From the sequence record NC_093711.1: a stretch of 41,519 nucleotides of DNA; one strand, given 5' to 3'. Made by a program: the position numbers and the translations under genes. Positions 13,538-27,761 of the stretch are shown one piece after another. This stretch comes from a phage. Every line of letters starts with the position of its first letter. Position 1 is the stretch's first letter. The notes under the pieces are model-generated. The model did no database searches and was not told where the DNA came from. It saw only the letters and a program-made list of their open reading frames with translations.

Positions 13538-13929
13538 TTCACCTTGTTGGCTTCTTCGTTAATGAGTTGCTGGAAGCGGGACACGTTAGTCCTGACCATG
13601 CCTTGCGGCGCCTGTTGCGACCAGCCATACTCCAGCCGTTGTGCATACGGCAGATTATTTGTCAGCGTGAACTCGCGCCAGTCGGCGGCTTTCAGTACGA
13701 AACTCGTGGCGTTTCCGGCTGCCGTGTTTCCTGATTTATCCCTAGCGTCCGTAATCCCGGAAGCAGGTGTACCCCCAGACGCCATCCAGTTCATACGGAA
13801 TCGGCCTGTATCTACCGGACTCGCCTTTATGATAGCGGAAAACAGCTTGATAGACACCTGACGCATCACCTTCTCAGGGTTCTTCTTCGCCTTTTCTACG
13901 AACTTAGATACATCAAGCGCGAAACTCAT
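13534..13929 (-). CDS. head-tail joining protein (HK97 gp10-like neck protein)
   Basis: 131-aa ORF, positional assignment. Confidence 0.35.
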   Translation of the reverse strand: MSFALDVSKFVEKAKKNPEKVMRQVSIKLFSAIIKASPVDTGRFRMNWMASGGTPASGITDARDKSGNTAAGNATSFVLKAADWREFTLTNNLPYAQRLEYGWSQQAPQGMVRTNVSRFQQLINEEANKVK

Positions 13930-14384
13930 TTTCTCACCTGAATAAAGTAGGCCACGACATCATCGTTAACCATCTTCTTCTCAATAGCTACGATGGACCA
14001 TTGCTCGCCGCCGAATTGTACCTTGTCTTCCATCTTCGGAACGACGCTGTAATTGGCTTTAACAACCATGTCGCCAGCCTGAATCGTCGTACCGTTTACC
14101 AGTCCCGCGTTTACCGGAACCGGAACCGCTTTCAACGGCAACACTTCATCCGCAGACCAGACGTACTCACCGAGAACTTCATCCCACACTTTCGAGCCAG
14201 CGCGAATCAGAGATACCGTGCTACCGAATTTGGTTAGAAGGCGTGTACCAACGCCTTGCATACGTTTACTGAAAGCGGTGCTCATCAGGCGGCCTCCAGT
14301 CTCGAGATAACCAGTAATGCGGATGGTGTTATCAGGGAGGTTCGCACCGATAAGGGTGAACATCTCTGTTTTAGTTTTCGCCAT
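13926..14384 (-). CDS. head closure / head-tail adaptor protein
   Basis: 152-aa ORF, positional assignment. Confidence 0.35.
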   Translation of the reverse strand: MAKTKTEMFTLIGANLPDNTIRITGYLETGGRLMSTAFSKRMQGVGTRLLTKFGSTVSLIRAGSKVWDEVLGEYVWSADEVLPLKAVPVPVNAGLVNGTTIQAGDMVVKANYSVVPKMEDKVQFGGEQWSIVAIEKKMVNDDVVAYFIQVRK

Positions 14385-14386
14385 TT

Positions 14387-14899
14387 TTAACCCCGGTACA
14401 CGTTAAACGAGAAGCCATTGTTAAGACCGCCGCACAGTAACGGGCGTAATGCGTCGTCAGCAGCGGTAATCGAAGTTGTGGCGCCACTGTTGCCGTTGTT
14501 GAAGTATGTCACTGTCACAGCACCCTCAACACGCTCAGTCTGCACGGAACGCCCATCTGAGTTAGCCCGAACATCAGTACCCGCACCATACGTAACCGCA
14601 GCGATTACTTGTGCCCGGATTAACTGCGACGGGATAACATTATCCGCTACGGTGAAGCCGTTTAGTGTTGTTCCTGTACGTGGGTACGCCAGAGACTGTT
14701 CAGCGGATACGCGACGCCCGCACATCTGAGGTTCTGCAAGCCCAACATAAGTAGCACCGTTGCGCAGGGCCACCTCTGCGGCGGTATCGTCTGCCGGCAA
14801 CACAAGACCGTAATTAGCCGCTAACGCGCGGGCGTCGGCCAGACTAACGTAACTGTCGGCATCAGGTACTATCGACCCATCTTCCACGATTAGCGGCAT
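14387..14899 (-). CDS. head-tail connector protein (gp6-like)
   Basis: 170-aa ORF between the capsid region and neck genes. Confidence 0.45.
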   Translation of the reverse strand: MPLIVEDGSIVPDADSYVSLADARALAANYGLVLPADDTAAEVALRNGATYVGLAEPQMCGRRVSAEQSLAYPRTGTTLNGFTVADNVIPSQLIRAQVIAAVTYGAGTDVRANSDGRSVQTERVEGAVTVTYFNNGNSGATTSITAADDALRPLLCGGLNNGFSFNVYRG

Positions 14900-16835: not shown

Positions 16836-17099
16836 CTATTCCAGAATATTCCTCACGTAATCCTGCAACATGAACACTTTAAGTCTCAGTTGCCGTACAC
16901 ATTCTGCGTTCTGGACGTCAATAGCTAAATCCTCGTCCGCGTCGTTACTTGGCAGTGCCAGTTTGCACGGCGGCTGCATCATCGTCGTATCCGGGGATGG
17001 AATTGGCGTTTGCGACGGCGCGGGACTTGAGCTGCACGCGCTCAGGGTCAAAAGTGCACACGCTGCGGCCAGGCGTTTTAATGTACTTAACGACTTCAC
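16836..17099 (-). CDS. o-spanin (Rz1-like outer membrane lipoprotein)
   Basis: 87-aa ORF in a different frame overlapping the 3' end of the Rz-like gene. Lipoprotein signal with lipobox (LLTLSAC), then a Pro-rich segment. Confidence 0.6.
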   Translation of the reverse strand: MKSLSTLKRLAAACALLTLSACSSSPAPSQTPIPSPDTTMMQPPCKLALPSNDADEDLAIDVQNAECVRQLRLKVFMLQDYVRNILE

Positions 17100-17331
17100 G
17101 GGTGATTACCTCTGATTTCGTCTTGCCTTCGTTATCAGCGGCGGCGGCCTTCGATTCATCCTGCTGCTGCCGTTGTGTTTTCTTCGCTAACTCAGCCAGC
17201 GCCTTCTGCTGTTGCTGCGAAACGAGATTCTCCCGGCCTTCGTTCCAGCCGATGCGGTATTGATAATAGCCGTGAGCGTATAACAGGATGATGAAACATG
17301 CTCCCGCTACGACAGTTGCTTTAAGATTCAT
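16945..17331 (-). CDS. i-spanin (Rz-like)
   Basis: 128-aa ORF with an N-terminal transmembrane helix (ATVVAGACFIILLYA) followed by a Gln/Lys/Ala-rich coiled-coil region. Confidence 0.6.
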   Translation of the reverse strand: MNLKATVVAGACFIILLYAHGYYQYRIGWNEGRENLVSQQQQKALAELAKKTQRQQQDESKAAAADNEGKTKSEVITREVVKYIKTPGRSVCTFDPERVQLKSRAVANANSIPGYDDDAAAVQTGTAK

Positions 17332-25294: not shown

Positions 25295-25544
25295 GCTTAT
25301 GCCCTCCGTATGACAGCCACGCCTGGCGAATCTGGCGCAGCGCAACTAATGTGATTAACGTCTCAGGCAGCGTCGGCGACATGCCGCCTTGTAACAGGTG
25401 GATACATCCGGCGGCGCAGACGATAGCAGTCAGGATATAGAGCACCCGACCGAACAGCCCGTCGTCCACGCTGGGGTGATATACATTAAACAGCGATGTG
25501 CCCCCGATTGCCAGCATACCGCCGAACCAGAATAACTCATTCAT
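25272..25544 (-). CDS. small membrane protein (holin/antiholin-like, 2 TM)
   Basis: From the internal Met MNELFWFGG: two hydrophobic helices and a charged C-terminus. Lies between the holin and endolysin genes. Confidence 0.5.
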   Translation of the reverse strand: MNELFWFGGMLAIGGTSLFNVYHPSVDDGLFGRVLYILTAIVCAAGCIHLLQGGMSPTLPETLITLVALRQIRQAWLSYGGHKHVSKHFR

Positions 25545-25845
25545 CCGGGCCTCCTCGACGTGCGATGTATTCTCCGGCGACGATACCAGAGAGGCGGGAA
25601 TAGATAGGCATCCAGAGAATAGCGATGATGAATCCGAGGCCAGCGATTTCACGGTCGCCCGTGATGCCAAACCATTGAGCCGCGAGAGGGGCGCCAAATA
25701 CGGCGCAGGTAAAGCCGGTTGCAATAAAGCAGAAGCCATCGATAGGGCCAGAAATAACGGACTTATGTTGTCGTAGTCCGATGACCCCTCCGGCGAGTGC
25801 GGCAGCGAGAAGCCAGCCTGTCACTGTTTCAGTAAATTTATCCAA
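25537..25845 (-). CDS. holin (3 predicted TM segments)
   Basis: 102-aa ORF with three hydrophobic segments and a charged C-terminal tail, immediately upstream of the lysis genes. Confidence 0.55.
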   Translation of the reverse strand: MDKFTETVTGWLLAAALAGGVIGLRQHKSVISGPIDGFCFIATGFTCAVFGAPLAAQWFGITGDREIAGLGFIIAILWMPIYSRLSGIVAGEYIARRGGPDE

Positions 25846-25904
25846 GATGAATCCTCCAGGTGCGTATTAAGTATGCAGTAACTGGAGGATACCACGGGTA
25901 GGAA

Positions 25905-26345
25905 TTATCCTAATAGTTGTTTGGTAATAATCTTGCCGCCGGTGTTAGTGTCAAACTTCGATGCGACGGCTACACCACCATGTGCCGAATACCCGCATTC
26001 CATAGCTGCTAATGCATAAGGAGAACCGGAGCCAACGGCGGCAAAGCCGTCTGCAATTGGAATAACCGAACTAAGTGCACAATCCCAAGATTTGTAGAAC
26101 GCGACTTTATACACCTTTTCTGTGTCTTTCACGAACACCAGGGCTTCGAAATCGAAGTCGTAGTGCCGTGCCTGAAGAATACCCTGACAATCGATAAGCA
26201 TAGTGCCTACCCCCGCATCGCCAGCTACCCCGATAACAGCAAAATCATTCTCATATATCTTTGTGTCTGTGTTGTAACAGTTACTCCCACACACAACACG
26301 CGTATCACAGGCCATTGTCTTTCCGTCAAACGCGATAGTAGTCAT
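25905..26345 (-). CDS. HslV / proteasome beta-subunit-like Ntn-hydrolase
   Basis: 146-aa ORF starting MTTIAFDG (Thr right after Met), with internal GD and a GSGSPYA motif resembling the HslV GSGGPYA motif. Shorter than HslV (~175 aa). Confidence 0.55.
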   Translation of the reverse strand: MTTIAFDGKTMACDTRVVCGSNCYNTDTKIYENDFAVIGVAGDAGVGTMLIDCQGILQARHYDFDFEALVFVKDTEKVYKVAFYKSWDCALSSVIPIADGFAAVGSGSPYALAAMECGYSAHGGVAVASKFDTNTGGKIITKQLLG

Positions 26346-26635
26346 TTATGTCTCCAGATGTATTGCCGTCTCTGCGGTTTCGTCGGAATATCATCGTATC
26401 CGAGCGATTTCCAGTAATTAAATAGCCGATTAGCGATTGCGGCGCGTTCCTGTGTTTTAAACTCACCAAGATTCACGGCCTTCCCGTTCTGGAATCCACA
26501 GGCTCGGATAGCTTTACGTCGGGCCTGAATCTCAGGGTACAGAGCGTTACGGCGGCGCTTGTATACCCGTGTTTTAGCTCTCGGCGCCAGCGGCGCAAGG
26601 CCGCTTCGTTTCAGGATGTCAGTTGCGAGGCTCAT
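26342..26635 (-). CDS. hypothetical basic protein
   Basis: 97-aa Arg/Lys-rich ORF; its stop overlaps the start of the HslV-like gene. Confidence 0.4.
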   Translation of the reverse strand: MSLATDILKRSGLAPLAPRAKTRVYKRRRNALYPEIQARRKAIRACGFQNGKAVNLGEFKTQERAAIANRLFNYWKSLGYDDIPTKPQRRQYIWRHK

Positions 26636-27082: not shown

Positions 27083-27631
27083 TCATGTCGTCTCTCCACA
27101 TCTGCGGCACACAAAATAATCCTCGTCGGCATCAAGAACCCAATCATGATCACATTCCTGAGTATCGTTTTTCGGTTTATATTCCTTGTCGTCCCACTCA
27201 CGTTTACCACATTTAGAGCAAAGCTCGCTACCAGGAACGTTGTTCGGATTGCCTTCGCTGAGAAACAACCCAGGCATAATAATCCAAGAGTGCTCGCATT
27301 CCTGGGTATCTTCTTTACGGCAACCAGATTGCTCCGGCGGTACAGGCGTCTGGGTGCACCGACAATTTACCGTTGGCCCGGGCGCATGTTCGCCAACCAC
27401 GTAGCTCTGGCCCCTAGAAATGTACCCACCCTTACGCACAAGTTTGTAAGCCTCTACATCCCCGGTGGCGGTAGCCAGCGCCATATGTAACCCCTTAATC
27501 TGCACCGAAGCATCACGTAACTGATTCTTAAGTGACTGCACCTCATGAGCCAGGTCTTCGCTCCGGCTGTTATTTACCTGCTGCCGTAGCTGGTCGATCA
27601 GGTACTCGAATATTTCGTTTTTGTTACTCAT
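27083..27631 (-). CDS. Cys-rich protein with two CEH/CDH...CxxCG zinc-ribbon repeats
   Basis: N-terminal coiled-coil-like region, then QECEHSW...CSKCG and QECDHDW...CRRCG. Probable start MSNKNEIF, coupled to a 45-aa upstream ORF. Confidence 0.5.
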   Translation of the reverse strand: MSNKNEIFEYLIDQLRQQVNNSRSEDLAHEVQSLKNQLRDASVQIKGLHMALATATGDVEAYKLVRKGGYISRGQSYVVGEHAPGPTVNCRCTQTPVPPEQSGCRKEDTQECEHSWIIMPGLFLSEGNPNNVPGSELCSKCGKREWDDKEYKPKNDTQECDHDWVLDADEDYFVCRRCGETT

Positions 27632-27761
27632 CAGCTTCACCCCTTTTCTCATCCACCCCGACTAGCAGCGATTTAGTGTCGCCGTCACACACCGAAGCGC
27701 TACTAATTATTTCGTAAGCGTCTACCAGTTCGCCTAAAGTCCAGCTACCGTACCAGCCCAT
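27624..27761 (-). CDS. small hypothetical protein (~45 aa), not in the ORF track
   Basis: GAGGAGAG Shine-Dalgarno; stop overlaps the start of the Cys-rich gene. Confidence 0.3.
   Translation of the reverse strand: MGWYGSWTLGELVDAYEIISSASVCDGDTKSLLVGVDEKRGEADE

Follow-up and report, generated by a model that had tools for sequence, protein, structure and literature searches.

Escherichia phage G AB-2017 (Kagunavirus, Guernseyvirinae), whose complete genome of 41,519 bp is the window analysed here, carries ahead of its lysis genes a small open reading frame (ORF) whose product is deposited as AQN31795.1, 'hypothetical protein G_38'. A reading made from the sequence alone (the original prediction) had described the 146-amino-acid product, which begins MTTIAFDG, as an HslV/proteasome-like Ntn hydrolase that could be either an active threonine protease or a decoy docking on host HslU. 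The ORF is indeed there, on the minus strand, which the prediction had left unstated. Here, we assign its product to the PPH family of proteasome homologues, describe its active site, its reduced fold and its distribution among phages, and weigh what such an enzyme is likely to do. The literature already describes this family and phage annotation resources name it, and in this respect our finding repeats both.

The gene lies on the leftward arm of the genome and is read in the same direction as the lysis, terminase and structural genes. The original prediction had placed it in the early region, a label that neither this arrangement nor the promoter and terminator scan described below establishes. 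A GGAG Shine-Dalgarno sequence (26355..26352) stands 6 nucleotides 5' of its ATG, and the start codon (26345..26343) shares bases with the TGA (26344..26342) of a basic 97-amino-acid ORF directly upstream. Downstream, beyond a 59-nucleotide spacer, come a holin, a second holin and a lysozyme-family endolysin, so that the position just upstream of a holin/endolysin cassette was correctly predicted.

To establish the fold we relied on a 106-sequence alignment, from which AlphaFold2 produced a proteasome beta/HslV-type beta-sandwich Ntn fold (predicted local distance difference test, pLDDT, 95; predicted template modelling score, pTM, 0.90). All structural readings below come from this alignment-based model, and a single-sequence AlphaFold model (pLDDT 36) was set aside. 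Comparison of the same alignment with E. coli HslV by hhalign gave a probability of 97.6% (E=2.8e-12), and a 136-protein profile searched against the PDB matched 20S beta5/beta5i subunits (E about 3e-12), HslV (9e-12) and the beta-proteobacterial proteasome homologue, BPH (6e-11), at about equal distance. Profile and structure comparison with HslV and proteasome beta subunits, the check that the original prediction had itself put forward, thus returned a proteasome-type Ntn fold.

The protein belongs to a large and uniform set of relatives. It matches phrog_1040, 'peptidase HslV family' (E=1.7e-35), and close homologues carry the GenBank labels 'peptidase HslV family', 'putative ATP-dependent protease' or 'NTN-hydrolase superfamily protein'. 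An exhaustive protein search of 1.84 billion cluster representatives returned at least 1500 homologues at E<=1e-3, counted as 50%-identity clusters, nearly all of them 135-155 amino acids long and aligned from residue 1. A Met-Thr start is found in 137 of 146 representatives of clusters formed at 50% identity, the median length of the relatives in the set is 144 amino acids, and 72 of 136 family members match PF00227 (Proteasome) at E<=0.01. A PADLOC search gave no match for PPH. Among the proteasome-like N-terminal-threonine hydrolases, no type smaller than PPH is known.

Fuchs et al. (2021; PMC8665760) describe PPH as proteins of ~140 residues from Caudovirales phages and prophage regions that radiate from the BPH cluster, keep the catalytic triad and Gly47, and lack both a propeptide and the S12/H5 elements; the absence of helix H2 is unique to PPH and RPC. 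The phage G protein shows the same combination, with 146 amino acids, a Met-Thr start, no propeptide, equivalents of Thr1, Asp17, Lys33 and Gly47, a missing H2, no S12/H5 and a Caudoviricetes origin; it likewise falls in group I with BPH as its nearest characterised relative. In the model the last strand ends at residue 143, leaving no C-terminal S12/H5, helices H3 (108-116) and H4 (121-131) are both short, and, as the hhalign alignment also indicates, nothing corresponds to H2 and only 6 residues are left of H1. Judged by these described features, the phage G gene product is a member of the PPH family, whose published cluster has WP_042125023.1 (OC.1434257) as its representative. The Guernseyvirinae copies form a divergent branch of it, about 30-40% identical to typical PPH.

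BPH (PDB 5OVS/5OVT) assembles as heptameric double rings from subunits of about 185-200 amino acids, in which all four helices (H1-H4) are present together with a long acidic pore loop, whereas the modelled phage protein lacks H2. With 20S beta subunits (PF00227, MEROPS T1) it shares the fold and the full active-site set, including the equivalents of Ser129, Asp166 and Ser169, and it differs from them in having no propeptide, H2, H5 or alpha-subunit partner.

We examined conservation of the catalytic residues across 106 homologues, mostly 28-40% identical to the window protein (positions of the codons are given in the table below). D14, K29, G42, G105, G107 and A111 are invariant; T2 and D132 are each conserved in 97%, G136 in 94%, S106 in 92% and T135 in 71%. 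Ser106 is the equivalent of proteasome Ser129 and HslV Ser124, and profile alignment pairs Asp132 and Thr135 with proteasome Asp166 and Ser169. The GSGSPYA motif occupies residues 105-111 and aligns with GSGGPYA of E. coli HslV, as originally noticed. On these alignments the protein has a complete and conserved T1 active site. Methionine aminopeptidase removes Met before a small penultimate residue; by this rule, and by the example of HslV, the host enzyme would strip Met1 and bare the threonine as nucleophile. Given the conservation of the catalytic residues, the mature protein would hydrolyse peptide bonds by proteasome chemistry, and we regard it as probably an active threonine protease, the first of the two possibilities offered in the original prediction.

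Positions of the PPH gene, its predicted functional elements and its immediate neighbours in the phage G genome.
Feature	Position	Strand	Remarks
PPH-family proteasome-like Ntn hydrolase gene	25905..26345	-	146 amino acids plus stop; N terminus MTTIAFDG
Thr2 codon, predicted nucleophile (mature Thr1)	26340..26342	-	Thr in 97% of 106 homologues
Asp14 codon, equivalent of proteasome/HslV Asp17	26304..26306	-	invariant; aligns with HslV D17
Lys29 codon, equivalent of Lys33	26259..26261	-	invariant in both alignments; aligns with HslV K33
Gly42 codon, equivalent of oxyanion-hole Gly47 of 20S beta	26220..26222	-	invariant; aligns with (A/S)-G of beta5i
H1 remnant (short helix 46-51) and loop 52-65	26151..26210	-	residues 46-65; the region that varies most among Guernseyvirinae copies; DSSP of the model and hhalign gaps
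Gly105-Ser106-Gly107 codons	26025..26033	-	GSG of GSGSPYA (residues 105-111); aligns with HslV GSGGPYA
Asp132-Thr133-Asn134-Thr135 codons	25941..25952	-	aligned with the RDxxSGG segment of 20S beta
ATGA overlap	26342..26345	-	PPH start codon overlapping stop codon of the 97-amino-acid ORF
Basic 97-amino-acid ORF	26342..26635	-	phrog_9632/4947; directly upstream of PPH; isoelectric point 11.2
PPH-holin spacer	25846..25904	-	hairpin pairing the holin Shine-Dalgarno; RNA folding free energy -23.6 kcal/mol, z -3.84
Holin	25537..25845	-	phrog_2359; 59 nucleotides downstream of PPH; TTG start

The comparison with HslV gave a different answer for the specific family named in the original prediction: the proteasome-like fold and active-site set stood, and the assignment to HslV did not. 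As predicted, the phage protein is shorter, by 30 amino acids, than the 176-amino-acid E. coli HslV, which it resembles in the GSGxPYA motif and the MTTI N terminus. It missed both curated NCBIfam HslV equivalog models (14.7 bits against 157.75 for TIGR03692 and 13.9 against 137 for NF003964). In the hhalign alignment it has no counterpart of HslV residues 60-62, 69-74, 77 and 82-90, at the end of H1 and in H2, nor of ~9 residues between H3 and H4. HslU inserts its C-terminal tails into inter-subunit pockets of HslV lined by F54, F57, A79, K80 and Q114 (PMC6429459), and the residues aligned with F54, F57, A79 and K80 in the phage protein are T48, I51, D63 and F64. No HslU-type AAA+ ATPase gene is linked to PPH in the window, and no ATPase recurs as a neighbour in 80 related loci. 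We rejected an identity with HslV on the far too low equivalog score, the loss of H2 and most of H1, and the lack of a linked ATPase. Since the part that is gone from the model is the layer bearing the HslU-tail pocket, the protein most likely acts without host HslU or a dedicated unfoldase. A literature match on phage JSS1_004 proved irrelevant, as it concerns host hslV transcription only.

Among close relatives of phage G the gene comes and goes. By tblastn, PPH is found in 299 phage records against 493 for the flanking 97-amino-acid gene (among records whose organism name opens with 'Escherichia', 29 against 107, and among those opening with 'Salmonella', 258 against 359), and it is missing from about 40% of Guernseyvirinae records. 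Phage L AB-2017 (KY295896.1), the closest relative of phage G at 94% nucleotide identity and a member of the same historic K1 phage collection, has lost it, as have fKuEco01 and K1ind1; in all three the holin follows 75 nucleotides past the 97-amino-acid gene. A three-way alignment with PPH-less phages revealed a clean gap of exactly the PPH ORF. The junction in fKuEco01 and K1ind1 retains AAA CCG TTA TTA AGA TAA (KPLLR-stop), matching the terminal codons of PPH in phage G (KQLLG-stop) and in KMB36 (KQLLR-stop). Because the last five codons and the stop are kept in phages without PPH, an ancestral gene appears to have been deleted there, as opposed to a gene having been inserted in phage G.

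Several consequences follow from these deletions. The clean loss in sister phages indicates that the gene is not essential, and as judged from these genomes PPH is an accessory, moron-like gene; the same loss makes a core morphogenetic role, such as that of a prohead protease, very unlikely here. The 97-amino-acid gene stands alone in the sister phages, so its product is not an obligate partner of PPH. The coupling of the two genes proposed in the original prediction is therefore real as an ATGA overlap with a basic upstream product, and it is weakened as a partnership by the record counts and by the sister phages.

Where PPH is present it is maintained. Among Guernseyvirinae copies the ratio of nonsynonymous to synonymous substitution rates (dN/dS) is 0.03-0.17, with dS reaching above 1, and by these estimates the gene is under purifying selection. 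Together with the intact catalytic set, this favours an active enzyme over an inert decoy. Truncated PPH products of 98-104 amino acids occur in some Kagunavirus genomes (for example phage M01, WKW35333.1) and share a 90%-identity cluster with full-length 146-amino-acid proteins, which suggests that in some lineages the gene is still decaying or its start has been mis-called.

To gain insight into the setting of the gene in distant phages, we located relatives on 425 IMG/VR stretches with phage-like surroundings and surveyed the neighbourhoods of 80 IMG/VR loci, found with a 12-sequence alignment, by ORF clustering and PHROG annotation. No universal partner gene emerged, as the commonest neighbour family occurs in at most about 19% of the 80 loci; two large neighbour 'clusters' turned out to be antisense ORFs within the PPH gene and were discarded. 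In at least 14 loci PPH is flanked by the genes for the head-tail adaptor Ad1 (phrog_477) and the head-closure protein Hc1 (phrog_161), or else by those for the major head protein and Neck1, and it often overlaps the Ad1 stop codon. The loci with PPH between Ad1 and Hc1 include the environmental siphovirus contigs L012, L015, L048, L051, L054, L056 and L074. About 18 of the 80 place it beside TerS, TerL or portal, in some cases between TerS and TerL, and the remaining loci have it amid unclassified small ORFs. Two further contexts were a P22-like nin-type region and the structural region of an Anaerolineae contig. The window has the same structural PHROGs (portal 145, head morphogenesis 241, scaffold 206, Ad1 477 and Hc1 161), and its Ad1 (14387-14899) and Hc1 (13926-14384) are adjacent. 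A search of genome contigs added 6 loci, from Bacteroidota, Bacillota, Proteobacteria and Planctomycetota, too few to judge dependence on host hslU. From these gene orders, PPH behaves as a mobile accessory gene that is usually found in or beside late modules.

We considered several other explanations for the protein. Under the second possibility raised in the original prediction, HslV-like rings would dock on host HslU and either redirect ATP-dependent degradation or block HslUV. The homology to HslV is real, the E. coli host has HslUV, and the GSGxPYA motif and MTTI start are close to those of the host protein; however, the apical H1/H2 layer that holds the pockets for the HslU C-terminal tails is largely deleted and its remaining pocket residues are changed. 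The protein also lies far below the HslV equivalog model, BPH and 20S beta are as near to it as HslV is, its strict catalytic conservation speaks against a purely inert decoy, and in Table 1 of PMC8665760 the entries for Actinobacteria include PPH and not HslV. The docking claim found no structural support in this comparison, and we consider HslU hijacking in any form improbable. A role as head-maturation (prohead or scaffold) protease is more improbable still. Its appeal is that the window has a head module with scaffold and major head protein genes and no recognisable prohead protease, and that relatives of PPH often sit in head or connector modules. Yet L AB-2017, K1ind1 and fKuEco01 are viable with the same head genes and no PPH, the gene is absent from a large share of the subfamily, and in phage G about 9.8 kb separates it from the gene for the major head protein. 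SPP1-like scaffold-based heads, moreover, need no protease. On the strength of the viable sister phages we rejected the prohead protease. That the gene is decaying and no longer serves phage G in any way seems to us scarcely credible: repeated loss within the subfamily and the truncated variants would fit such a fate, but the reading frame is unbroken, none of the catalytic residues is missing, the Shine-Dalgarno sequence is good, and the low dN/dS is maintained between copies whose dS reaches above 1.

A further explanation draws on connectase, an archaeal monomeric proteasome homologue that acts as a protein ligase (PDB 6ZW0) and is proof that the proteasome fold can function outside a ring (PMC8665760; PMC7980362). 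In this alternative, PPH would be a sequence-specific processing enzyme or transpeptidase (ligase) working on one defined phage or host protein, for instance a protein of the head or connector or one that serves host defence. Like connectase, the phage protein is missing part of the H1/H2 layer, through which rings stack and regulators make contact. The loci with PPH between Ad1 and Hc1, and those with it beside TerS, TerL or portal, also count in favour of this alternative, and residues 44-60, the most variable segment among Guernseyvirinae copies, coincide with the loop standing in for H1/H2, as expected of a fast-evolving recognition surface. The hallmarks of connectase, a two-helix S3-S4 insertion over the active site and the absence of both H1 and H2, were not found in the phage protein. 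We regard this explanation as rather unlikely.

The explanation that we favour, and hold to be likely, is that the phage G gene encodes an active proteasome-type threonine hydrolase of the PPH family that is independent of HslU and, as an accessory function, confers a conditional benefit in infection. The enzyme would work as a free oligomer or a non-canonical oligomer, without an unfoldase, and from the middle to the late part of infection it would cleave either peptides or a small number of specific proteins, perhaps a single one, of the host or the phage; the outcome of this cleavage would be a fitness benefit to the phage under some conditions. Several observations weigh against this proposal. 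Isolated proteasome-type subunits are mostly inactive outside the assembled ring (PMC8665760), and if the truncation blocks ring assembly, activity is not guaranteed. Independence from HslU is something we infer from missing structure. The match of the phage protein to PF00227 (E=2e-4) scores 21.4 bits, slightly under the gathering score of 22.4. The Guernseyvirinae copies carry Cys in place of the family-conserved Trp53 and His in place of Pro61, as well as a 7-residue insertion (residues 77 and 80-85), and their properties may differ from those of other PPH. Finally, the literature that we searched reports no activity, oligomeric state, substrate, structure or phenotype for any PPH.

Truncated proteasome homologues may form unprecedented quaternary structures (Fuchs et al., PMC8665760). 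In a bolder version of the proposal, PPH would be a 'minimal proteasome' that needs no unfoldase and takes up a new quaternary structure, made together with the late or structural proteins. It would serve as a protease that is virion-associated or injected or else, in the manner of connectase, as a site-specific protease or ligase acting on a particular host protein (for example in defence or quality control) or phage protein. The variable loop replacing H1/H2 would be its recognition surface, a candidate role that is speculative. We consider this version as a whole unlikely.

The surroundings of the gene yielded further observations. The PPH-holin spacer can fold into a hairpin, CCUCCAG...CUGGAGG, in which GGAGG, the Shine-Dalgarno sequence of the holin gene with its TTG start, is paired (z against shuffled sequences; see table). 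In an alignment with the PPH-less fKuEco01 and K1ind1 its stem and loop are the same, and the remaining spacer has two differing positions; the hairpin may act as a translational brake on the holin. A promoter and terminator scan of the region found sites no more often than in shuffled sequence (7 against 10.4 and 9 against 8.1, respectively). A sigma-70-like site at 25927-25954 (minus strand), with a perfect TTGACA -35 element, a 16-nucleotide spacer and GATTAT, lies within the 3' end of PPH ~80 nucleotides before the holin start and would vanish in PPH-deleted phages; promoter-like sites around it are no commoner than in shuffled sequence.

The upstream 97-amino-acid gene is core to Guernseyvirinae, being present in apparently nearly all of them (the 493 phage records mentioned above), and Jerseyvirus versions are longer (123 amino acids) with an extra Lys/Arg/Pro-rich insert. 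Its product has no sequence match in Pfam, NCBIfam, PADLOC or the PDB; the depositor names 'HNH endonuclease' and 'nucleotide kinase' are without visible basis, and an AP2-like look of its GKxVNLGEFxT motif proved unsupported. Elsewhere in the window, a gene for an Rz-like spanin (16945-17331, minus strand; phrog_2536, E=1.8e-56) lies in the head module between the Hoc-like decoration and scaffold genes, about 7.5 kb from the holin-endolysin cassette. A 189-amino-acid ORF (27083-27652, minus strand; phrog_6094) contains two copies of TQEC[E/D]H[S/D]W ... C-x2-CG, a pattern that suggests a duplicated zinc-ribbon-like unit after an N-terminal coiled-coil-like region.

PPH proteins are very abundant, as the number of 50%-identity clusters attests, and phage G offers a convenient entry point to them: its E. 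coli host is tractable, the catalytic residue to be mutated is clear, and with its PPH-less sister, phage L, it makes up a pair found in nature that differs in the presence of the gene. Learning what this 15-kDa, H2-less proteasome homologue does in a phage would extend the known types of viral protease and could uncover a way of assembling the proteasome fold that has no precedent.
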